Assembly (NCBI GenBank): GCA_036339465.1
Contig: JAYZAY010000058.1
Span: 1 to 32,041, forward strand
Reading direction: 5' to 3'
DNA length: 32,041 nucleotides
DNA from: Myxococcota bacterium
Lineage (GTDB): Bacteria > Myxococcota > XYA12-FULL-58-9 > JABJBS01
Every line of letters begins with the position of its first letter. Position 1 is the stretch's first letter. A program made the translations under genes and the position numbers. The notes below the pieces were generated by a model. The model saw only the letters and a list, made by a program, of their open reading frames with translations, was not told where the DNA came from and ran no database searches. Below, in pieces: positions 3,611 through 14,808 of the stretch.

Positions 3611-4276
3611 TTACGACCTGGGCTCCAAGTCATTGATCCAGCCAAAAGCCACTCGCAAAAGTTCTACCTGGTTCTTTAAATCCAATTTCCGTTTAATGTG
3701 GGCAAGGTGCGCTTCCACAGTTTTCTTACTAATAAAGAGCCGTTCCGCTATTTCGCGAGCCCTCACACCGCGCCCCAGAAATTCAAAAACCTCCAATTCT
3801 CGATTACTTAAGCAGCTAAGGGGCGAATCTGGATTCTTTGACACACCAAACATACGCTTCACCAATTCATCGGATTGGCGTTTACTCAGGGCCACTTCGG
3901 CCCGCGAAATTTGGCGAATCGCTTCCACCAATTCTTCCAGCGGGGTATTTTTCATAAGATACCCATTGGCACCCGCCCTCAAAGCGCGCTGCGCAAATAT
4001 CTTTTCATCGTGAATTGAGAAAACCAATATCGGTAAATCGGGATATTCACCCCGCACTTGTTTTACCAATTCGAGTCCATTCATATCCCCCAGGGAAAGA
4101 CCGGTAACCAAGACATCCGTAGAACACTTTCCAAGGGCTTCCACCACGCCGCCGCCGCTGGCTGATTCTCCCGACACCGTTAAACCCCTTTGTTTTTCAA
4201 GAAAAACCGACAGCCCCATACGCACCACAGGATAACAATCCACCAGAAAAACACGCGTATCTTTAGATTCCTGCAT
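3611..4276 (-). CDS. NarL/LuxR-family response regulator with degenerate (pseudo-)receiver
   Basis: Receiver fold plus LuxR HTH (LSNRELEVFEFLGRG...IAERLFISKKTVEAHLAHIKRKL). The acidic pocket reads VDCYP and the phosphoacceptor position reads LVTGLSL. ATG at 4276 follows GGAGG. Confidence 0.88.
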   Translation of the reverse strand: MQESKDTRVFLVDCYPVVRMGLSVFLEKQRGLTVSGESASGGGVVEALGKCSTDVLVTGLSLGDMNGLELVKQVRGEYPDLPILVFSIHDEKIFAQRALRAGANGYLMKNTPLEELVEAIRQISRAEVALSKRQSDELVKRMFGVSKNPDSPLSCLSNRELEVFEFLGRGVRAREIAERLFISKKTVEAHLAHIKRKLDLKNQVELLRVAFGWINDLEPRS

Positions 4277-4602
4277 TAATTCATCCTCCAAACCAAGCGC
4301 CATTGAAGGTTATTTGCTCCCAAGATATGAACCATCCCAAAACGGACCAAATCTCGGCGACCATAGGACGGTGATTCTCCGAGCTTAAGTCAGTCACAAT
4401 GGAATTGCTAAGAGTCACCACAAGTCGGCCAGTGGCTTATATCGTTCTACGCCAAAACCCTAGTTTTTTTTACATATAATCCCATCTATCTGTGACCCAC
4501 CGGCTTAAATTAGTTGGAATTCCCAAAATCAGCAGTAAGCCTGACGTATCTTTGGGCCGAGAACTCACGCCGAAAGTGGCGATCCAAATGGAGGAAACAA
4601 CA

Positions 4603-5661
4603 ATGAAAAAGACGATTAAAGCTGAATATCTATGGCTCGATGGTGCCGCGCCAACTCAAGAACTTCGATCGAAAACTCGCGTGTTGCGCGTTCAGGACAA
4701 CAACTGTGAATTAGAACTCAATGATCTCCCTGATTGGGGATACGATGGTTCATCGACCTATCAAGCGACCGGTGGCGACTCAGACCTCACACTAAAACCC
4801 GTCTTTTTCACCAACGATCCCGTTCGCGGCGGTGACTCCCTCGTCGTTCTCTGCGAAGTCATGTACGCCGACGGTCGTCCCCACGAAACCAATTACCGTG
4901 CTCAACTTCGGGATGTTCTTAAGCGGGGTGGCGCGGCACAAAAAGCATGGTTTGGTTTTGAACAAGAGTACACATTCTTTCACCAGCAAAACCCATTGGG
5001 TTGGCCAAGCAACGGCTTTCCCGCACCACAAGGCCCCTTTTACTGCTCCGTCGGTGCTTCCGTTGCTTATGGTCGAAAAGTCGTCGAAAAACACACAGAT
5101 GCTTGCCTAGACGCAGGACTCCTTCTTTTTGGGACCAACGCTGAAGTCATGCCTGGCCAATGGGAATTTCAGATCGGATACCGAGGCGACGCCGAAGAAG
5201 AAATTGACCCACTCATTTGCGCTGACCACCTCTGGGTCGCTAGGTGGCTACTTCACCGAGTCGCTGAAGACCAAGAAATCACGGTCTCTTTCGAAAATAA
5301 GCCTATCAAAGGGGATTGGAACGGAGCGGGAATGCACACCAACTTCTCCACCGAAAACATGCGTGATTCGCGCACGGGGATGGGCGCCATTGAAAATGCA
5401 ATCGTTGGACTCGGAAATTTCCACAAAGAGCACATCGAAATTTACGGTGCTGGCTTGAATGAGCGCCTTACAGGACTTCACGAAACGTGTAACATCGATC
5501 AATTCCGTCATGGAGTCGCCGATCGAGGTGCTTCCATCCGCATCCCACGACACGTGGCACAGGTTGGTCACGGGTACATCGAAGACCGTCGCCCTGGCGC
5601 CAATGCCAATCCGTATCAGGTATGTAGCCGAATTCTTATGAGTATTTGCCACATCGACTGA
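4603..5661 (+). CDS. glnII: Glutamine synthetase type II (GSII)
   Basis: AEYLWLDG, LRSKTR, WGYDGSSTYQA, FGFEQEY, PQGPFYC, NAEVMPGQWEFQIG, GDWNGAGMHTNFST, RLTGLHET, RGASIRIP and YIEDRRP. The ~352 aa length is typical of GSII. GGAGG precedes ATG 4603. Confidence 0.95.
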   Translation: MKKTIKAEYLWLDGAAPTQELRSKTRVLRVQDNNCELELNDLPDWGYDGSSTYQATGGDSDLTLKPVFFTNDPVRGGDSLVVLCEVMYADGRPHETNYRAQLRDVLKRGGAAQKAWFGFEQEYTFFHQQNPLGWPSNGFPAPQGPFYCSVGASVAYGRKVVEKHTDACLDAGLLLFGTNAEVMPGQWEFQIGYRGDAEEEIDPLICADHLWVARWLLHRVAEDQEITVSFENKPIKGDWNGAGMHTNFSTENMRDSRTGMGAIENAIVGLGNFHKEHIEIYGAGLNERLTGLHETCNIDQFRHGVADRGASIRIPRHVAQVGHGYIEDRRPGANANPYQVCSRILMSICHID

Positions 5662-5681
5662 ACGTGAATTCACTGCTCGAC

Positions 5682-5715
5682 AAGGGGAGGGGAAACCTTG
5701 GTTCTCCTTCCCTTT
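5682..5715 (+). terminator. Stem-loop between glnII and the glutaminase gene (possible terminator, attenuator or RNA-stabilising hairpin)
   Basis: AAGGGGAGGGGAAACC-TT-GGTTCTCCTTCCCTTT imperfect inverted repeat about 20 nt after the glnII stop, with only a short U tract. Confidence 0.45.
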
Positions 5716-5774
5716 GGCAGCATCTTGTTTCCCTCTACTCACCGACCACAACTTCACCGATAGGTAATCTCATA

Positions 5775-7400
5775 ATGGAACTCAACAACCCCCAAGACAT
5801 CAACCCGAAAAAAGCACGAAAAAGCAGCAAAAAAGAAGCACTCCAGAAACCGGCAACCAACAAATCCCTCACGCTGACAGGCTTCGAACGAGAAAACGCT
5901 CTTTTCCATGCCTTGGATTCCAAGCAGATCGGCTATCTAACACGGGAGCAAATTCTCACCGGACTTGAACAAGCCGGTCTTCGCCTCGACGATCCTAGAC
6001 TCAAGGAAATCCAGGAAAGACTGGACGGATGCGTACCACCCAACGAAATAAAATTGGAAGCCTTCGCAACATGTATCGCGCCTTGTATCGGCTTGGTTGA
6101 ACAAGCTATCCAGGGGCGGTTGATTATCCCTGACTTCTCAGGTTTCTGTGAAAAAATAAAAACGATTTACGACAAGACAGCAACGTCCACTGGTGGTAAA
6201 GTCGCCGATTATATTCCTCAATTAGGACGGGTCGACCCGGAGCAATATGCAGTCTCTCTTTGCACCATCGATGGACAACGATTCTCCCTTGGGGAATCGA
6301 ACACTAAGTTTTGTGTACAATCCACTTGCAAACCCATCAATTATTGTTTGGCCCTCAACGAAAACCCCACCGAAATCGTTCATGAACATGTGGGGCGCGA
6401 GCCGAGTGGACGTGGATTTAATGAATTGGCTTTAAACCACAATGGTCGCCCCCACAATCCCATGATCAACGCTGGTGCCATTATGAGCTGTTCGCTTATC
6501 AAGCCGGAACTCAACGTTGCAGACCGATTTGATTACGTCATGGAACGCTGGGGAGCCTTGGCTGGTGGCAATAAACCGTCCTTTAGTAATTCTGTCTATC
6601 TATCAGAACGACAAACCGCAGACCGTAATTTCGCCCTGGGCTATTTTATGCGCGAAAACGAAGCCTTTCCCAAAGGCACGGAATTAATCGACATTCTCGA
6701 ATTCTATTTCCAATGCTGCTCCATTGAGCTCACCGCCGACATGATGTCAGTGATTGCCGCAACTCTCGCCAACGGTGGGGTTTGTCCTGTCACCGGTGAG
6801 CGGGTATTCGGCCCTGAGACCGTGCAAAATTGTCTCTCACTTATGTACTCCTGTGGCATGTATGACTTCTCCGGAGAATTCGCTTTCACCATCGGGTTAC
6901 CTGCCAAAAGCGGTGTATCCGGAGCCATGATGATCGTGGTGCCCAACGTCATGGGCTTGTGCACCTGGTCACCACGTCTCGACCGCCTCGGTAACAGCGT
7001 TCGTGGTATCGAGTTTTGTAAAGAACTCGTAGGAACCTTTAACTTCCATAACTACGACAATCTTACAGGGGTTTCCGATAAGATAGACCCACGCCTTCAG
7101 CCAACGACTTCTGAGGGTGAAACCATTACCGCGATGATTTGGGCCGCAAGTAAAGGTGATCTCACCGGAGTTCAGCAACTGATAGCTCGGGGCGCAAGTC
7201 TCGACAAACCCGATTACGACGGCCGAGCTCCTTTGCATCTGGCTGCGGCTGAAGGCCGCGCCGAAGTGGTTGAATTATTCATTCACCACGGCGCAAATCT
7301 CGGCCCTGTGGACCGATGGGGACAAACTCCCTTGGAAGATGCCAAACGAGGTGGACACAAAGGGATCGTCAGCATGCTTGAAAGAGCGATGAACAACTAA
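5775..7400 (+). CDS. glsA: Glutaminase with N-terminal EF-hand-like domain and C-terminal ankyrin repeats
   Basis: GKVADYIPQL, catalytic QSTCKP (SxxK), PHNPMINAGAI, CGMYDFSGEFAFTIGLPAKSGVSG, GNSVRG. N-terminal LFHALD...GLRLDDPRLKE. C-terminal ankyrin motifs WAASKGD, DYDGRAPLHLAAAEG, DRWGQTPLEDA. Confidence 0.93.
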   Translation: MELNNPQDINPKKARKSSKKEALQKPATNKSLTLTGFERENALFHALDSKQIGYLTREQILTGLEQAGLRLDDPRLKEIQERLDGCVPPNEIKLEAFATCIAPCIGLVEQAIQGRLIIPDFSGFCEKIKTIYDKTATSTGGKVADYIPQLGRVDPEQYAVSLCTIDGQRFSLGESNTKFCVQSTCKPINYCLALNENPTEIVHEHVGREPSGRGFNELALNHNGRPHNPMINAGAIMSCSLIKPELNVADRFDYVMERWGALAGGNKPSFSNSVYLSERQTADRNFALGYFMRENEAFPKGTELIDILEFYFQCCSIELTADMMSVIAATLANGGVCPVTGERVFGPETVQNCLSLMYSCGMYDFSGEFAFTIGLPAKSGVSGAMMIVVPNVMGLCTWSPRLDRLGNSVRGIEFCKELVGTFNFHNYDNLTGVSDKIDPRLQPTTSEGETITAMIWAASKGDLTGVQQLIARGASLDKPDYDGRAPLHLAAAEGRAEVVELFIHHGANLGPVDRWGQTPLEDAKRGGHKGIVSMLERAMNN

Positions 7401-7492: not shown

Positions 7493-7758
7493 CGGCCCCA
7501 CCGAAGCTTGCAGCCCTCTATGGCACTCGTGAATACTCTGTCTAGAAAACCCTTGATGCAAATAAGCCTATTTCCCGGAGAATTCCCCAAAACAAATTTG
7601 GATAGTACCGCGCCTAAACCCTTTCCACGATGGTTTTTATCTCAGCAACCACTGAGCAATGATCTGCTGGACCCATCTCCAAATTGACTTAAGAGCTTTA
7701 CCCCATTAACTTGGCCTTTCAACCAATGAGGTTCATACCCAACCCCCAGGAGGTTTTA

Positions 7759-8592
7759 GTGAATTTATCCATTGGAACAGTTTCCGGTTTTATTCTAGGC
7801 GTTGGGCTTTTCGTCTTTTCCATCGTGTCTAACACCGACAACTATTGGATGTTTATCAACCTGAGCAGCCTACTTTTGGTGATGGGGGGAACACTTGCAG
7901 CTATCTTTGTCTCATATCAAGAAAAGGACGTCATTCGCGCACTCAAGGAAGCAGCCATGATCCTCAAGCCATCCAATGTCAACAAACGCACCCTCTTTGA
8001 GGATGTGGAGTTGATCATTCAATGGTGCAACATTGTTCGAAAAGAAGGGCTCCACGCCCTTGAATCTCATCTTCAAGAAGCCCGGGAAGGGGATAGTTTT
8101 CTCTCCCATGGCGCTGAATTACTCCTGAAAAGTTATGAAAGTCAGGAACTGAGAACACTCTTGGAAAAAACCCTCGAAAATGCGCACCAACGAAATCTCC
8201 GCCCCGTCACCATCCTCAACCGCATGGCCCAAATATCACCTGCTTTTGGTATGGTAGGCACTTTAGTCGGGCTTGTGGTCATGCTCGACAGCCTCGGCGG
8301 TACCGTCGAAGCAATCGGTCAAGGATTGGCCTTGGCCCTGATCACCACGCTTTACGGCGTGCTACTCACCCAGCTCATCTACAAACCCGCATCCTCCAAG
8401 TTGATGGAGAAAGAGCAGCTCTTTCGTTTTCGCAATAAAATGATTATCGAGGCTTTGGTTATGCTCGACGAACAAGCCTCCCCCAGCCGAATGGAAGACC
8501 ATCTCAATAGTTATTTAGAACCCGATATGTATTTTAGAGTGGCTTCTCGTGATAGCTCGGGCAAACCCAAAATCGTAAGCGCAGCGGCTTAA
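7759..8592 (+). CDS. motA: MotA/PomA-family stator A subunit
   Basis: SLLLVMGGTLAA, VRKEGLHALE, SPAFGMVGTLVGLVVML and ALALITTLYG motifs. GTG start at 7759 follows AGGAGG. Confidence 0.9.
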   Translation: MNLSIGTVSGFILGVGLFVFSIVSNTDNYWMFINLSSLLLVMGGTLAAIFVSYQEKDVIRALKEAAMILKPSNVNKRTLFEDVELIIQWCNIVRKEGLHALESHLQEAREGDSFLSHGAELLLKSYESQELRTLLEKTLENAHQRNLRPVTILNRMAQISPAFGMVGTLVGLVVMLDSLGGTVEAIGQGLALALITTLYGVLLTQLIYKPASSKLMEKEQLFRFRNKMIIEALVMLDEQASPSRMEDHLNSYLEPDMYFRVASRDSSGKPKIVSAAA

Positions 8593-8601
8593 GAGAAAAT
8601 C

Positions 8602-9318
8602 ATGTCCGAATTCGACATATCGGAAAGCCATCCCGAAGAAGATGATGGAGAAAGTTGGCTTGCAACCTATGCAGATGCCATTACCCTCCTTATGGCATTT
8701 TTCGTGATACTCCTGGCCCGGAGTCAAGGAGGACTTCCCACCAATCAAGAACAAGTCGAGGCTGCAGAAGAAGTGGCCGCCCAGGAGAAAGACGCTGAAG
8801 AAAGAGGAGAAGCCTTACAGACCATGAAAGAAGCCATCGAATCCATGGCCAAAACCCATGCCGTTGAGGATGCTATCGATGTTACCCAAAACAATGAAAG
8901 CGTCATCATCGAAATGGCAGACAAGGGTTTTTTCGCCACCGGTTCCTGGCGTCTCAAACCCAAAGCGAGGGTCATATTGCGTTCGTTGGCACAAGTCATA
9001 GAAACCACAGAGCTTAATTATCCCTACCAACTTGAAGTTCAAGGTCATACCGACGATGTTCCCAATCGGAAAAGAGGGCGAAATTCAAATTGGGAACTCT
9101 CATCTCGTCGAGCCACCCATGTACTCAAAATGCTCGTAAAAGGTGGGATTAAAGAAGAAAATCTCAAGGCCGTGGGCTATGCCCATACCCGGCCCAAAAG
9201 GCCAAATCGCGATACAACGGGAAAACCCATCCCCCAAAATCGCTCGGCCAATCGCAGGGTGGTGCTTCTTCTTGAAGTTGAGAAAAGAGATAAAAAAACC
9301 GTCAATCAGGTTCTTTAA
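8602..9318 (+). CDS. motB: MotB/PomB-family stator B subunit with OmpA-like peptidoglycan-binding domain
   Basis: WLATYADAITLLMAFFVIL plug/TM motif with the essential Asp, plus VQGHTDD, NWELSSRRA and NRRV OmpA-like motifs. Starts 9 nt after motA. Confidence 0.9.
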   Translation: MSEFDISESHPEEDDGESWLATYADAITLLMAFFVILLARSQGGLPTNQEQVEAAEEVAAQEKDAEERGEALQTMKEAIESMAKTHAVEDAIDVTQNNESVIIEMADKGFFATGSWRLKPKARVILRSLAQVIETTELNYPYQLEVQGHTDDVPNRKRGRNSNWELSSRRATHVLKMLVKGGIKEENLKAVGYAHTRPKRPNRDTTGKPIPQNRSANRRVVLLLEVEKRDKKTVNQVL

Positions 9319-9358
9319 AGAGCACACTAGGACATAGAACCATTGGACCAAATCCGAG

Positions 9359-10756
9359 TTAAGCAGTCGCTTGCTCAATCAATAAGCCCTGGAGCTCAAT
9401 GTCTGAAATATCTCCCGCACCAACTAAGATTTCCCCTAGCTTTTTGGCCGTCTTCTTTTGTTCTTCGAGACGAAGCATCAACGTAGACTTATTAATCATC
9501 CCCTTACTCAAAGCCAGCTGTCCTATGCTCAAGGAACCGACATACCCATAGGCCTTCTCCGCATGGGCATTGAGATCGAGCCCAACACTCTCATCATCCT
9601 CACGGAGCGCCACAAAAAGTCCCGTTACTTTTAAACAAAGCACAGTGCCAACAGCCGCAAGTAAAATCGCCGCAAAAGTTCCCTCCAATTGAGGGATCAT
9701 GAGGCTGGCGTTGCCGTAGAGTAATCCATCGGTTCCGCCCGGATTAACCTGAGTGGTCGCAAATACGCCGGTGAGAATAGAACCAACGATACCGCCCATT
9801 CCATGACAAGCAAAAACGTCAAGGGAATCATCCAGTTTAGAGCCGCGGAGTATACGAAGAGTTCCGAAGCTAACCGCCGCGCCTATCGCACCCATGACAA
9901 TAGCACTCATGGGCGTGACAAAACCGGCAGCTGGGGTGATGGTCACCAAACCAACCACAGCCCCAATGGCAGAACCTGCTGCAGAAATGGTCTTGTTGAA
10001 GATTTTATCTAGGAGCGCCCAAGTCGTCAAAGCAGCGGAAGCAGCGAGGCTCGTGGTCACCAGAGCATTGCCGGCAATCGCATCAGCCGCTAGAGCGGAG
10101 CCTGAATTAAAGCCAAACCATCCGAACCAAAGTAGGGCTGCACCCAAGAGCACAAAGGGAATATTTTGAGGCTCGATGGAACGATGTTCTCTTTCCTTTC
10201 GAGGCCCGATGACCATGGCCGCCACCAGGGCTGACACACCGGCGCTGATATGAACCACTGTCCCACCGGCAAAATCGAGAGCTCCGGCTTGACTTAGCCA
10301 ACCACCTCCCCAAACCATATGACAGAGAGGAGCATAGACAACCAAGCTCCAGAGACAGATAAAAATCATATAAGCACTAAAGCGCATTCTCTCCACCACT
10401 GCGCCTGAAATTAGCGCCGGGGTAATGATGGCAAACATCATTTGGAAAGCCATGAAAAGAACATGAGGAATCGTGCTACCTTCCTGAGGCTCAATGCCCA
10501 CGTTTTGTAATCCGAGAAAAGAAAAATCACCGATAAAAGCATTGCCCGCTCCAAATGAGAGGCTATAGCCAATCACGGCCCACTGGATAGCAATGACCCC
10601 CAGAGCGACATAGCTCATCATAAGCGTATTGAGGATGTTCTTACGATGAACCAAGCCACCGTAGAAAAAAGCAAGCCCAGGAGTCATCAGCATCACCAAG
10701 GCGGTTGACGCCAAAATCCAAGCCGTATCCCCAGAATTGATCTGCTCTAGGTTCAT
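9359..10756 (-). CDS. amtB: Ammonium transporter (Amt) with fused C-terminal tandem MshEN-like module
   Basis: GDTAW, LMTPGLAFFYGGLV, FQMMFAIITPAL, DFAGGTVVH, LWFGWFGFN and DDSLDVFACHG (twin His). Carries an extra ~55 aa tail with two 24-aa xLGxxLxxxGxxxxxxLxxxLxxQ-like units. AGGAG RBS. Confidence 0.93.
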   Translation of the reverse strand: MNLEQINSGDTAWILASTALVMLMTPGLAFFYGGLVHRKNILNTLMMSYVALGVIAIQWAVIGYSLSFGAGNAFIGDFSFLGLQNVGIEPQEGSTIPHVLFMAFQMMFAIITPALISGAVVERMRFSAYMIFICLWSLVVYAPLCHMVWGGGWLSQAGALDFAGGTVVHISAGVSALVAAMVIGPRKEREHRSIEPQNIPFVLLGAALLWFGWFGFNSGSALAADAIAGNALVTTSLAASAALTTWALLDKIFNKTISAAGSAIGAVVGLVTITPAAGFVTPMSAIVMGAIGAAVSFGTLRILRGSKLDDSLDVFACHGMGGIVGSILTGVFATTQVNPGGTDGLLYGNASLMIPQLEGTFAAILLAAVGTVLCLKVTGLFVALREDDESVGLDLNAHAEKAYGYVGSLSIGQLALSKGMINKSTLMLRLEEQKKTAKKLGEILVGAGDISDIELQGLLIEQATA

Positions 10757-11074
10757 CTAGGTCTCCTTTTCTTTCGAATCCCAACGGACATCTACTCGTT
10801 ATCGAATGATGAATAAAGACGGACACATAGACAGAGACACGTAATTTGATTTAGGAATATGACTACTTAATCATTAGGTGAAAGTCCTATGTTTTCGCAG
10901 AAGCTAGAATATGGCCTGTTTGCGCGATTCGTTTGAAATCATTCTGATTATCGGACATTTATTATCTGACAATGGCTGTCAATTTGCAGGTTTCGGTTTT
11001 GCAACTATCGCCGTTTGGATCGCTACAGAAAGCGGAAAGAGATAAGCAGAAGAATTGGGCATAGAGGAAGAGAA

Positions 11075-11127: not shown

Positions 11128-14100
11128 TTACTGATAGATGTTCATATTGTAGAGGAAATCGAGCTTGTAACGAACTTCACTTAAGTAGTTATCAAGCTGA
11201 TTGTCCTGCAGCTGAGGTACGGTATCCTTAATGCTTTGGATAAAATCCGCCGCGATAGATGGGTCAACATTCCGACCGTTGATACTCTTGATGGTGTCAT
11301 AGCGATACGCCTCCCAAATAACACCCATTGCATCATCTTCCCACCTTACCACACGGCTTGGGTCTGGATATTCCCGGCCAAGATTGTCGCCCGCCTGGTG
11401 GAGGAAAAGGTAGTTATTCCAAGTTCGGTCATAAATGCTTCTTAGGTAAGACATGGCATACATGAATGCATACTGCATCTCGTAATCGGTACGATTGTTG
11501 TCAATCTTGGGTACCTTATCCCAGCCACCTCTTTGATTCGCTAACCGAGACATTTCGCTATTCTTTCCTTGTGCCTCCAGGATATCATTGATGATCCTAT
11601 CGGATGCCACCGCTTCACGTACCTGATCTCCTGAGCTCGCCACTGAACCCGTGGTCGATAAAGGCAGGTGCGCATAACGAGACGTATCATCCATAAGGAG
11701 AGACTTCAGGATTTCCACGGTTTCTGCTTTGAATGCATTGGCCAAAGACATAGAACTATAACGGTTGTTTACCTCACCAATCATAAACTGCTCTAGGTTG
11801 GTGCCAAATCCACTGAAAAGTGAAATGATAGCGGCCAGTTTGTTGTTGTAGAAACCATACCGACTGACCGTACTCCACTCATCCTTGGCGAGGGTATACT
11901 TACTATACCGAGGGTGAGCGCTATCGGAGTTGGTGAAGTTTGCGGCCGCGCCACCACGATTACTCTTATAAAGAACCGGAGTTTGGCCTTGGGTGCTCCA
12001 GGAGTGACTGCCTACGTCCGGCGTCATAATGGTGTTCACCACTTCGTTCATGGCATAGCCTGCCACGCTATAATAGTAGCCTAGCTGTCGATTATCAGAA
12101 GACAGTGCCTCATGGGCATCGTAGCCATAGATTTGACCAATATAGGAAGCGAGAAGGCCAGCTCGGGTCGCATACATGAAGTAGCGAGAAAAGAGGCCAC
12201 CAATCAAGCCACCATTAAAGCTGCTATAACCGGTCACCTTGCCCCGGGTGTAGTTGCTCATCCAATAGGCCTGACGAACCCGCTCACCATAGAGATAAGC
12301 AATCTCTACAGGAGAAGTTCCAACGTCCCATCGACTACAGTTTAAATTAAAACCATCGGCAAAGGTATCTGTGCAGAACTCATGCTTGTTGAGGTACTTG
12401 CTCCCACCTTGAGGATCTTGGTACATCTCTAAACCATATTGGTCGAATGAGACACGGTTGGCATCAAAGGGCGCATAAGACCGAGTCTGGACCTTCGCCA
12501 ATTGTCCCTGACGACTTTGCTCAAAAAGGGGATGGCCATTGTCATACATTTCAATATGATTGAAATACCCGAAACGAATGGCAGCCACGTCATAGGCCCC
12601 TAGACCATGGATATCGGAACCAAAGTTCGCACCGTAATCCATGATAGAGCTGTACTGATACTCTAGGCGAGCAGGAATGTCGTCCTCATTGGTAAGAACC
12701 GCATCCCAATAGCCCTTCATGCCATCGCCGGATTCACCCACAAAGACATCATCGGGGACGACTGGGGTTGAAACACCTGGTTGGATGTAGTTCATCTCAT
12801 CGGTGGAACCTGCAAAGTTGTGTCGAAGGCCGAGGTTATGACCCACTTCGTGAAGCTGAACGCCAATATAAATTGCGTCCCGTAGAGCCTTGAGGATTTT
12901 CTCATCGTTTGCAAGAACCTTCGCATCGTAGTCTGGATCACTCTTTGGAGGATAAGGATACTGACGCGCGATTCTAGCCGCAATATAACCCACGGTAGGA
13001 TCAAGGAATTCCTGCATGTAAACGGTTTGTTCACCGAGTTCCTGCAGGATTTGTTCTCTACCAAAAATTGCCTCCCCGGTGCCCGCCACACTGTTTTCAC
13101 GTAAATTGCGAAGCAGCTCTGCGGTTTTGCTGGCTGACATATTGGGGTCCACAAATCCTTCAAACGCTTCGTCATCAAATCCGTGGAATGCATGGTGATG
13201 CTTTTGAGCTTCCTTGGAAAGCTTGCTCGCCACGGAATCTCCCTTAAGGGCTTGATGCATATTCTGCTCGATTTCCTTAAGTTGGCGCTTCATTTCGAGT
13301 TTGTCGAGATTGCTATCGATTTCCTTGTTGAAAGCGTGCAGTTCAGAATCAACCGCTGGCATACGACCGGACATAGGCGAACGCTCTCGGCTAAACTGAT
13401 TGTCGAGAGAAGTTTGGAGACCCTTGAAGTACTCACCCTCTAGCCACTCCGTGCTGTCTTTGCTGTAAATCCCATTATAAAGTTTCACCATATCCAAAGC
13501 ACGTTTAGCGTAGCTGTTTAATCCCGCGTAGTAAGTCACTGCCCATGCATTGACGGTTTCACCTGTTCGCTGGTCGTGACTACCGGGACCGTAACCCAGT
13601 GGGTTAGAAGTTCCCGCAGGACGCGCAAGCTTAAGAAAGTTGTAACGAAGGTCGCCAAAGAGCTTAATTCCCAATCCCTTAGCTCGACAAACCTCAGGAG
13701 AGTTCTCGGTGACAGGATTGGCACAAACTGCGAAAGCCACTGTTTGTTCATGGGTCGGATAACCAACGTCTGTCAAAGCCTTCACAAAACCGGTGTTCCA
13801 AATTTGGCCTATTCGCTTGGCCGCGGGAATCATCTCTTCAGGATAATCTTCAGCCATAAAATACACGATGGGATCGAGCTCTCGCTCTTGAATCGGAATC
13901 AACACACCGTTTGCGTCGACGTTCTTTTTCCACATGTTGAAGCGATTGGCTCGGTAGTGACGGGTGGCCCAAGTGTCACCATCAAATTGGTCGTAGTTCT
14001 GAACTTCGGTCTGGAAAAAACCGTACCGGGAAAACACATCGACAAAGATGGGATCACCACGAGAATCGGTGATAAGTTCACCGAAGGCATCCCGCTGCGG

Positions 14101-14808
14101 TACCTGCGCTGGATGCTTCAGCTCTTGGTAGTCGTTGTTTGGATCGATTTTCAAAATCGACGTGAATACCGAAATCATGGAAGACGCACCCATTCCAATA
14201 ACGTGCTTAGTGGTCACATTGATGTGGTCCTCTTGAATATCGAGCAGATAGGGGTCGTCATCATTGGAGGCTTCAGTTTGTACCATGTGATTGGCGGTGG
14301 GCCCCAACATATCCGCAAGGCCAGTTTGGTTTCGAGACCAATCTACCAGCATTTGCTCTCGGTCATACCACTTACGCGATGACCCATCTTCATAAAGAAC
14401 GTTGTTTTCTTCACCGGTCTGGGAATCGTATTGACGGCGAACATCCATATGGCCCAGAATCGGATAACGCGCCACAATAAATTCCTCAGGCATGTCATCC
14501 TTATCGATATCATTTCGCCCCGGAGACATCTCATCCATATCAATGGCGATAAGTTCCTTTTCGCGAATTTCCCAGCGAATGCGTGAAAGTCCGGTGGCTG
14601 AACCAATAATAGCCCCGGTCAGGTAAGCACCAAAATAAGGAATATCGGTAACCATCTGACGATAGTACCATTCACCTTGAAAGAGGGACTTGTCGACAAT
14701 ATTTGGACGGGTCTGATCAATATCACCAAGGCGCTGCGTACAGCCCGGTGCTATCAATGCCACCGCCGCGACCAAAGCAATTATTTTAGTAAGTCTAGAA
14801 GCTCTCAT
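11128..14808 (-). CDS. Large zinc-dependent metalloprotease lipoprotein (met-zincin, EcxA-like)
   Basis: Lipoprotein signal ...LIAPGC, zinc motif HEVGHNLGLRHNF (HExxHxxGxxH), Met-turn SSIMDY, and LGAYDVAAIRFGY. Confidence 0.85.
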   Translation of the reverse strand: MRASRLTKIIALVAAVALIAPGCTQRLGDIDQTRPNIVDKSLFQGEWYYRQMVTDIPYFGAYLTGAIIGSATGLSRIRWEIREKELIAIDMDEMSPGRNDIDKDDMPEEFIVARYPILGHMDVRRQYDSQTGEENNVLYEDGSSRKWYDREQMLVDWSRNQTGLADMLGPTANHMVQTEASNDDDPYLLDIQEDHINVTTKHVIGMGASSMISVFTSILKIDPNNDYQELKHPAQVPQRDAFGELITDSRGDPIFVDVFSRYGFFQTEVQNYDQFDGDTWATRHYRANRFNMWKKNVDANGVLIPIQERELDPIVYFMAEDYPEEMIPAAKRIGQIWNTGFVKALTDVGYPTHEQTVAFAVCANPVTENSPEVCRAKGLGIKLFGDLRYNFLKLARPAGTSNPLGYGPGSHDQRTGETVNAWAVTYYAGLNSYAKRALDMVKLYNGIYSKDSTEWLEGEYFKGLQTSLDNQFSRERSPMSGRMPAVDSELHAFNKEIDSNLDKLEMKRQLKEIEQNMHQALKGDSVASKLSKEAQKHHHAFHGFDDEAFEGFVDPNMSASKTAELLRNLRENSVAGTGEAIFGREQILQELGEQTVYMQEFLDPTVGYIAARIARQYPYPPKSDPDYDAKVLANDEKILKALRDAIYIGVQLHEVGHNLGLRHNFAGSTDEMNYIQPGVSTPVVPDDVFVGESGDGMKGYWDAVLTNEDDIPARLEYQYSSIMDYGANFGSDIHGLGAYDVAAIRFGYFNHIEMYDNGHPLFEQSRQGQLAKVQTRSYAPFDANRVSFDQYGLEMYQDPQGGSKYLNKHEFCTDTFADGFNLNCSRWDVGTSPVEIAYLYGERVRQAYWMSNYTRGKVTGYSSFNGGLIGGLFSRYFMYATRAGLLASYIGQIYGYDAHEALSSDNRQLGYYYSVAGYAMNEVVNTIMTPDVGSHSWSTQGQTPVLYKSNRGGAAANFTNSDSAHPRYSKYTLAKDEWSTVSRYGFYNNKLAAIISLFSGFGTNLEQFMIGEVNNRYSSMSLANAFKAETVEILKSLLMDDTSRYAHLPLSTTGSVASSGDQVREAVASDRIINDILEAQGKNSEMSRLANQRGGWDKVPKIDNNRTDYEMQYAFMYAMSYLRSIYDRTWNNYLFLHQAGDNLGREYPDPSRVVRWEDDAMGVIWEAYRYDTIKSINGRNVDPSIAADFIQSIKDTVPQLQDNQLDNYLSEVRYKLDFLYNMNIYQ

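Follow-up and report, generated by a model that had tools for sequence, protein, structure and literature searches.

An ammonium channel with a C-terminal MshEN domain, a candidate c-di-GMP-tuned transporter from an uncultured marine family of Myxococcota

Introduction

The DNA considered here is a stretch of 32,041 nucleotides (the window) from contig JAYZAY010000058.1 of the Myxococcota assembly GCA_036339465.1. It carries a gene for an ammonium transporter (Amt) that continues in frame into an MshEN domain, the domain through which Vibrio cholerae MshE binds cyclic di-GMP (c-di-GMP). The tail is one 53-residue MshEN_N domain with two half-motifs and a single predicted c-di-GMP site, and not a pair of tandem domains. 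The fusion is real, conserved and restricted so far to one uncultured marine family. Its best reading is that of an ammonium channel tuned by c-di-GMP, for and against which the evidence is about evenly balanced. The fusion joins two known modules and is apparently undescribed. The parts of the gene are the following.

9359..10756, reverse strand: amt-MshEN fusion gene (P0001), 465 amino acids; open reading frame call, PF00909 and NF053729, junction bridged by contigs of runs X1, X2, X3 and X4
10763..10768, reverse strand: AAGGAG ribosome-binding site 5' of the ATG of the fusion gene, from the sequence
9548..10723, reverse strand: Amt domain, residues 12-403; PF00909 and model compared with Af-Amt1 (2B2F)
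9548..9604, reverse strand: C-terminal regulatory region (Arg385, ExxGxD as Glu389-Asp394, His398, Glu400, Tyr403); by alignment, with the role taken from PMC4852598
9530..9547, reverse strand: linker of 6 residues from Tyr403 to the MshEN motif; alignment and model
9458..9529, reverse strand: MshEN half-motif I, Ser410-Gln433; alignment
9443..9457, reverse strand: spacer of 5 residues between the half-motifs; alignment
9371..9442, reverse strand: MshEN half-motif II, Lys439-Gln462; alignment

The MshEN domain and its predicted fold

Bases 9529-9371 encode Ser410 to Gln462 as 24 + 5 + 24 residues, in letter-for-letter agreement with the string quoted in the initial annotation of this DNA. The protein ends three residues past the motif, without a fused kinase or cyclase. 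In half-motif I, Ile411, Gly412, Gly419, Leu426, Leu430 and Gln433 are kept, Ser410 stands in the place of Arg9, and Ala415 occupies a core position. In half-motif II, Leu440, Gly441, Gly448, Leu455, Leu459 and Gln462 are kept, Lys439 stands in the place of Arg38, and Asp449 occupies a hydrophobic core position. Both motifs thus have the Gly at position 3, the Leu clusters and the Gln at position 24 that mark an MshEN motif. The two units had been described as a tandem module; they are the halves of one MshEN_N domain for one c-di-GMP.

The profile scan that had been suggested as a check gave a match of the tail alone to NF053729 (NCBIfam, MshE-related c-di-GMP motif) at E 1.9e-9, but its 37.1 bits lie under the cut-off of 38, and no Pfam family matched the tail. 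PF05157 is listed for none of the fusions, which may explain why the architecture has been overlooked. Among shuffled versions of the tail, 1 in 200,000 fitted a relaxed form of the motif, a lenient control because the relaxed pattern was devised after the family had been seen. A sequence search of the Protein Data Bank with the tail gave Thermus thermophilus PilF and V. cholerae MshE (5HTL) as the best matches.

An AlphaFold2 model of the full protein, built with 64 sequences, predicts four tail helices (411-417, 423-435, 440-446 and 452-464) with a predicted confidence score (pLDDT) of 93-98, preceded by a linker with pLDDT of about 61 that is likely flexible. A separate model of 85 residues reached about 80-85 across the domain. 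Foldseek placed c-di-GMP-bound MshE first for the tail model (0.8 Å over 54 columns, E 0.026), followed by the PilF GSPII-B domain (0.9 Å), the non-binding GSPII-A (1.9 Å) and Xanthomonas PilB (2.8 Å), so that the structure prediction proposed at the outset returned an MshEN-like four-helix fold close to the ligand-bound form. With VIA-align the tail model matched 5HTL with Z 11.0 and a root-mean-square deviation (rmsd) of 1.3 over 58 aligned residues; the top five rows were all MshEN or GSPII domains, and the best unrelated row had Z 6.5. The tool itself warns that Z below about 13 can reflect a common arrangement in helical bundles, and the identification therefore rests on profile, sequence and structure searches all pointing the same way. 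Neighbours of the model in the Atlas include MshEN clusters, and a search of the Atlas by features gave no usable match. Overall, the profile, the sequence search, Foldseek and VIA-align bear out the MshEN identity first proposed for the tail.

Conservation of the candidate c-di-GMP site

Eleven tails from 10 clusters, with a mean identity of 37%, were aligned. The columns of MshE Gly11, Gly18, Leu29, Gln32 and Gly40 are invariant, and those of Leu39, Leu54 and Leu58 hold Leu in 10 of the 11 tails and Ile in the remaining one. Mutations of MshE at these columns have been reported to reduce affinity by 9-fold (Q32A) to more than 70-fold, up to complete loss (G11L) (PMC5013675). The spacer has 5 residues in the present protein, whereas the other 10 fused sequences have 7, the length also found in T. 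thermophilus PilF GSPII-C.

The first position of the motifs is less regular. An extended consensus that admits Arg, Lys or Leu as the first residue of each motif has been proposed (PMC11731258); Lys439 fits it and Ser410 does not. Position 1 of motif II is Arg in three of the 11 tails. Studies of tested binders have reported Lys and Leu at position 1 in PilF GSPII-B (KD 6 nM; PMC11731258), Met and Lys in Aeromonas CheA (KD 2.6 µM; PMC5013675) and a motif I that begins with Pro in Escherichia coli NfrB (Kd about 1 µM; PMC8669469). PilF GSPII-C, also a binder, aligns with Pro at motif II and with the two-residue longer spacer of the other 10 tails. An isolated MshEN_N domain binds without the C-terminal subdomain at 0.35 µM. 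The initial annotation had cautioned that the leading Arg is replaced. The replacement by Ser and Lys stands, but the concern is weaker than feared: because tested binders carry Lys, Leu, Pro or Met at this position (PMC11731258; PMC5013675; PMC8669469), the missing Arg is not disqualifying. The family of fused tails probably binds c-di-GMP. For the present copy, binding at physiological levels is favoured by a slight balance at most.

The Amt part and its C-terminal regulatory region

The Amt part matches PF00909 over residues 12-403 (E 2e-117, 392.7 bits against a cut-off of 23.2) and TIGR00836 (420.4 bits against a cut-off of 343.3), and the model lies at 1.6 Å from Af-Amt1 (2B2F) over 403 columns. 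Alignment to Af-Amt1 and E. coli AmtB finds the pore residues Trp149, Ser220, Phe108/Phe216, His169/His318 and Asp161 in place, which confirms the complete Amt with Phe gate and twin His seen at first inspection; the pore residues are invariant across all fused members. Asp313, which is presumably the contact for Arg47 of GlnK, is kept as well. Tyr32 is as in assimilatory Amts, and the Amt part is nearer to Af-Amt1 and AmtB (E 2e-96) than to ammonium receptors (E 2e-39). The N1/N2 signature of ammonium receptors, QX6EX15NX2D[F/T]X54-60TX2[S/T], has been defined in PMC11152129 and is absent from all nine full-length fusions. Without this signature, with a Tyr32 of the assimilatory kind and lacking any catalytic output domain, the protein is read as a channel that carries an input domain, and ammonium transport is the predicted function of its intact-pore Amt.

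In fungal and plant Amts, contact between the C-terminal region and the cytoplasmic loops has been proposed to set the open versus the closed state (PMC4852598). The MshEN domain begins six residues past Tyr403, the last residue of this region, and the spacing of six is found in 10 of the 11 fused sequences. Arg385, Glu389, Gly392, Asp394 and Tyr403 are present here, and the His of intracellular loop 3 (ICL3) that partners the terminal Tyr is replaced by Gln197; this His is present in all 48 unfused controls. The Gly of the ExxGxD motif is replaced in 10 of the 11 fused sequences, against 101 of 111 unfused homologues that retain it (3 being unparsable), and E. coli AmtB and plant AMT1;1 become inactive when this Gly is mutated (PMC4852598). 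This loss is only a hint of coupling, since the fused sequences are related and not independent and four tail-less sisters share it. These tail-less Amts (P0161, P0163, P0164 and P0260/P0328) lack both the Gly and the Glu of ExxGxD with all pore residues kept, and are natural tests of how essential the motif is.

Reality and distribution of the fusion

Single contigs of X1 (9187-10358) and X3 (9015-10145), from different studies, extend across the junction and through the complete tail, within which no base differs, and contigs of X2 and X4 likewise bridge the junction. The runs that hold at least a fifth of the stretch are labelled as marine or seawater metagenomes, with one unlabelled, and the source names of relatives are 'Myxococcota' or 'Deltaproteobacteria'. 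At 9812-9869 the contigs of four runs agree among themselves and differ from the window assembly at six clustered bases; the cluster falls within the Amt domain, outside the tail, and is either a patch of strain variation or a local error of the assembly.

The fusion is found in three of the six genomes of the family, namely the present one (G000) and two others (G001 and G002), each from its own genus; the three family genomes without it are 74-88% complete. It was not found in the 16 remaining genomes of the class, and no full junction match was found outside the family (f1) among 401 genomes of the phylum with 13 candidates scored per genome. The suggested search for homologues of the same domain architecture brought in 11 fused clusters at 90% identity with 59 member sequences, whose full-length proteins are 54-61% identical to the present one. 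NF053729 matches all 11 clusters with 25.7-45.3 bits, three of them above the cut-off. No independent Amt-MshEN fusion was found among 158 Amt loci listed from genome and metagenome collections, where the home-made MshEN profile used was not very sensitive, as it missed the G002 fusion at the domain level. A search with a junction profile likewise gave no independent fusion elsewhere among 24 matches, the best 8000 candidates having been scored. P0160 carries a truncated tail, and in P0280 and P0313 an apparent frameshift interrupts it.

Genomic neighbourhood, PII proteins and c-di-GMP machinery

The conserved neighbours of the fusion gene in the window are the following.

4603..5661, forward strand: glutamine synthetase II-like gene (glnII); NF041605 451 bits, cut-off 500; conserved neighbour
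5646..7400, forward strand: glutaminase with EF-hand and ankyrin repeats; domain scans; conserved neighbour
3611..4303, reverse strand: NarL/LuxR-type response regulator, with a counterpart of this type in the G001 and G002 clusters

In G000, G001 and G002 the fusion clusters with glnII, the glutaminase and the NarL-type regulator, and the G002 cluster includes a NarQ/UhpB-type kinase. The genomic context is that of three of the 11 fused clusters, tail-less sisters not being represented; in G002 the fusion gene is split over two contig ends and each flank was read separately. No PII gene lies next to the fusion in any of the three genomes, and none lies on the fusion contig of G000; the initial annotation had already noted that no PII gene is adjacent. 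The two PII matches of G000 are on contigs C13 and C96. On C13 a second amt of another subtype is followed directly by PII, with glutamate synthase, read from the open reading frames, upstream. As a control, PII lies at most 1 kb away in 55 of 95 unfused Amt loci and is lacking within 1 kb in 40; loci needed at least 1.3 kb on both sides, a requirement that removed 63 of 158. An adjacent PII is thus often missing at unfused Amt loci. PII proteins are able to act in trans, and GlnK may still do so on the fusion. For c-di-GMP signalling, G000 encodes 12 GGDEF domains (9 with intact GG[DE]EF) and two EAL domains and has 24 NF053729 matches.

Several features of the cluster were recorded in their own right. 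The glutaminase, with EF-hand_14 and ankyrin repeats, lies directly 3' of glnII, and counterparts are found at L132:3656-5350 and L133:4636-6240 (G001 and G002, read by eye), so that the pairing of synthetase and glutaminase appears conserved in three genera. The EF-hand and ankyrin architecture is known from animal glutaminases. Family genomes carry 1-3 glnII-like genes, and one from another genus (G003:C304:1828-4299) has glnII next to an unfused Amt that belongs to a different clade. A MotA/PomA-like and MotB-like pair (7711-9318, forward strand) lies between the glutaminase and amt, convergent with amt, and was not seen at this place in G001 or G002. Upstream of amt, 11128-14808 (reverse strand) encodes a protein of 1226 amino acids with a lipoprotein-like N-terminus and a Met-zincin motif (PF16313).

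No convincing upstream motif common to the three genomes was found, and a pattern scan gave no good sigma-54 site before the fused amt; a sigma-54-like -24/-12 element lies about 70 bases upstream of the conventional amt-glnK pair (L136:9916-10314, G000 C13). In the RNA run X20 (oligo-dT, share 0.06) a 251-base contig falls on amt with one difference and a 174-base contig on glnII; these are not counted as evidence of expression because DNA carry-over is possible.

The window encodes a second membrane protein with an MshEN-like motif, of the SpoIIM family (PF01944; 22056-23189, reverse strand), with an N-terminal NF053729 match of 45.5 bits, above the cut-off. Its motif I begins with Pro and its motif II begins with Lys and ends without Gln, and the SpoIIM-MshEN architecture is missing from the accessible table of Wang et al. 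(PMC5013675). Homoserine O-succinyltransferase (PF04204; 23906-24703, reverse strand) matches profile positions 100-255 only, in an open reading frame of 162 amino acids; another of 101 amino acids ends 4 bases upstream of it, and the gene is possibly split.

Proposed mechanism

In the proposed mechanism the cytoplasmic C-terminal MshEN_N domain likely binds c-di-GMP through the backbone amides of Gly412 and Gly441, the Ile411-Leu455-Leu459 and Leu426-Leu430-Leu440 clusters, and Gln433 and Gln462, while Lys439 would stack on one guanine. The bound ligand would shift the adjoining C-terminal regulatory region so that the channel opens or closes, and we infer this coupling to transport from the position of the domain just past Tyr403, where the region that gates plant and fungal Amts ends. 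That the ligand activates is a guess that leans only a little past even, made because the function of MshE and NfrB depends on the ligand and because contacts that stabilise the open state have been weakened in this family. Two paths for ammonium would then be available to the cell: a conventional amt-glnK pair next to glutamate synthase, and the fused channel next to glnII and the glutaminase, which would be tied to the motile/sessile signal through its tail. A fuller version, in which c-di-GMP gates the channel and the MshEN domain has replaced GlnK as the gate through the remodelled C-terminal region, is possible and rather doubtful.

A series of observations weighs against binding and gating by c-di-GMP. 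The fold match is expected of any MshEN homologue, and binding does not follow from the fold. The NF053729 score is 31.7 bits in the full protein and reaches only the sub-threshold 37.1 with the tail alone, and 8 of the 11 fused clusters are below the curated cut-off. Position 1 of motif I is never Arg (Pro in 6, Leu in 4 and Ser in 1 of the 11 tails). Both motifs begin with Pro in 4 of the 11, for which no tested example was found in the literature searched. The Gln61 column holds Gln in 7 of 11 tails, or in 8 of 11 with P0330 in place of the truncated P0004. Ser410 and Asp449 are two unfavourable residues of the present copy. Ser at the first position removed the residual binding of a rebuilt PilF GSPII-A (PMC12002112, section 9), a result that concerned motif II in an already weakened construct, and Ser410 could cap the first helix. 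The position of Asp449 is that of Phe48Lys, which has been named among two probable reasons why a Deinococcus PilB domain does not bind (PMC5013675). The near-identical P0002 has Gln433Lys, which may be a variant or an error, and a perfect MshEN consensus may still fail to bind (PMC12002112).

Other observations concern the coupling to transport and the history of the tail. The present protein itself retains the ExxGxD Gly, and the tail-less sisters also lack it, so that this Gly can change without a tail being present. Because two PII genes and GlnD are encoded in the genome, control by a second messenger instead of GlnK, as first suggested, is unproven; the 40 unfused loci without a near PII detract further from that suggestion. 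The four closest relatives (64-71% identity) end 8 residues past the Tyr, without the tail. In trees of the Amt part, both of them quick trees, the fused and tail-less proteins form one branch (support 96 with three tail-less rows, 94 with four), and the present protein is sister to the four tail-less Amts (support 99). A clade of fused proteins only is rejected (p-value of the approximately unbiased test, p-AU, 0.0007, quick tree), which implies either a single loss of the tail or two gains; the simplest history is a gain followed by a single loss. The initial annotation had treated absence of the tail from close homologues as a sign of a chimera. The absence is confirmed for the four nearest relatives, but it reflects evolution and not a chimera. 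Comparison of this tail gave higher scores with unrelated MshEN domains than with sister tails, but the former had been chosen as its best matches; the equal spacing from Tyr403 tends to favour a common origin with the other tails.

Alternative explanations

The main rival, judged unlikely, holds that the tail folds as MshEN_N without physiological binding of c-di-GMP and serves either to dock a protein or as a steric barrier between GlnK and the cytoplasmic face. Docking by a ligand-blind domain has a precedent in the non-binding N-terminal domain of Xanthomonas PilB, which binds a PilZ protein, and the PilB-PilZ complex 7LKM is a structural neighbour of the tail (Z 8.3, rmsd 3.0). The loss of the motif I Arg in all 11 tails, Ser410 and Asp449 here, the variable Gln61, the eight sub-threshold clusters, the many degenerate MshEN-like motifs of this genome and the absence of PII beside the fusion in all three genomes speak for this rival. 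However, the ligand-contacting glycines and the motif I Gln, which non-binders such as XpsE have lost, do not vary among tails of 37% mean identity, and the model lies nearer to ligand-bound binders than to non-binders. Asp313, the presumed contact of GlnK Arg47, is also kept.

It is improbable that the tail binds c-di-GMP without gating and makes the Amt a transceptor or scaffold that recruits glutamine synthetase II (GSII), the glutaminase or the NarL-type two-component system. The cluster of glnII, glutaminase and regulator is conserved in all three genomes, with the NarQ/UhpB-type kinase in G002, the linker is predicted to be flexible (pLDDT about 61), a second, conventional amt-glnK pair exists, and Amt folds have been reused for signalling (PMC11152129). 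Against such a role, the N1/N2 signature is absent from nine of nine sequences and there is no output domain; in addition, the unfused Amt of another clade beside glnII in G003 indicates that the neighbourhood does not need the tail.

Still less probable is a tolerated passenger from an MshEN-rich lineage that is decaying without function. The tail is absent from the four nearest relatives, truncated in P0160 and apparently frameshifted in P0280 and P0313, the genome has 24 motif matches, and the tails are 37% identical where whole proteins are 54-61% identical. Yet the tail is in frame with a fixed spacing from Tyr403 in 10 of 11 sequences, in proteins 54-61% identical, and has five invariant motif columns. 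An assembly chimera or read-through artefact, for which the 102 contigs of the assembly and the six deviating bases at 9812-9869 might have spoken, is ruled out by the X1 and X3 contigs that span the junction and by the same architecture in two other genera and 10 further clusters.

Novelty and comparison with known systems

No description of an Amt-MshEN fusion was found in the literature searched, in keeping with the early remark that it is not a characterised system. Wang et al. have listed MshEN architectures in ATPases, glycosyltransferases and signalling proteins, with no transporter in the accessible part of Supplementary Table 4, and the word 'ammonium' is absent from the accessible supplements (PMC5013675). 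A search by term of the accessible text of two reviews gave no mention of c-di-GMP control of Amt (PMC10433425; PMC10710835). The terms 'MshEN', 'T2SSE' and 'GSPII' are absent from the text supplements of PMC11152129, a statement that covers those supplements and not the domain lists of its Fig. 7B.

If the reading of a c-di-GMP-tuned channel is true, the fusion would represent a third mode of Amt regulation, acting at the same C-terminal region, would add a nutrient channel to the list of MshEN effectors, and would wire nitrogen uptake directly to the motile/sessile messenger. Its reach is limited, as all fusions found belong to a single uncultured marine family. Bacterial Amts are gated by PII and eukaryotic ones through phosphorylation of the C-terminal region. 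The natural series of position-1 pairs (Ser/Lys, Pro/Pro, Leu/Arg and Leu/Pro), the spacers of 5 versus 7 residues and the tail-less sisters could be used to probe which degenerate MshEN motifs bind.

The tail resembles the MshEN_N domains of V. cholerae MshE (5HTL) and PilF GSPII-B/C (PMC5013675; PMC11731258) in its 24-residue half-motifs and four-helix bundle; both Gly, the Leu clusters and both Gln are kept, and the model lies at an rmsd of 0.8-0.9 Å from the ligand-bound structures. Unlike in MshE and PilF, the domain stands at the C-terminus of a transporter, without MshEN_C, with Ser and Lys for the two Arg and with Ala415 and Asp449 in the core. E. coli NfrB (PMC8669469) is likewise an inner-membrane protein with a C-terminal MshEN that has been read as an allosteric switch, and its motif I begins with Pro as in 6 of the 11 Amt tails. 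It differs in being a glycosyltransferase with a full MshEN domain and shown binding, whereas the fusion is a channel with predicted binding.

With AmtB-GlnK of E. coli and with Mep2 and plant AMT1, which are gated by the C-terminal region (PMC10433425; PMC4852598), the fusion shares the channel fold, the pore residues and an expected regulation at the cytoplasmic face. It differs in having no linked glnK and in that the candidate regulator is a fused second-messenger domain and not a PII trimer or a phosphosite.

Sd-Amt1 (Amt-HAMP-diguanylate cyclase) and Ks-Amt5 (Amt-histidine kinase) also carry a C-terminally fused signalling domain in a genome with a separate amt-glnK pair, and Sd-Amt1 links an Amt to c-di-GMP (PMC11152129). 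Sd-Amt1 makes c-di-GMP upon ammonium, whereas the tail of the fusion is a predicted receptor without catalytic output, so that the fusion would be the mirror image of Sd-Amt1.

A wider parallel is found in potassium and osmolyte transport. Cyclic di-AMP (c-di-AMP) acts directly on K+ and osmolyte transporters through RCK_C or CBS domains (KtrAB, KimA and OpuA). The principle is shared with the fusion, while the nucleotide, the domain, the transporter family and the substrate are all different.

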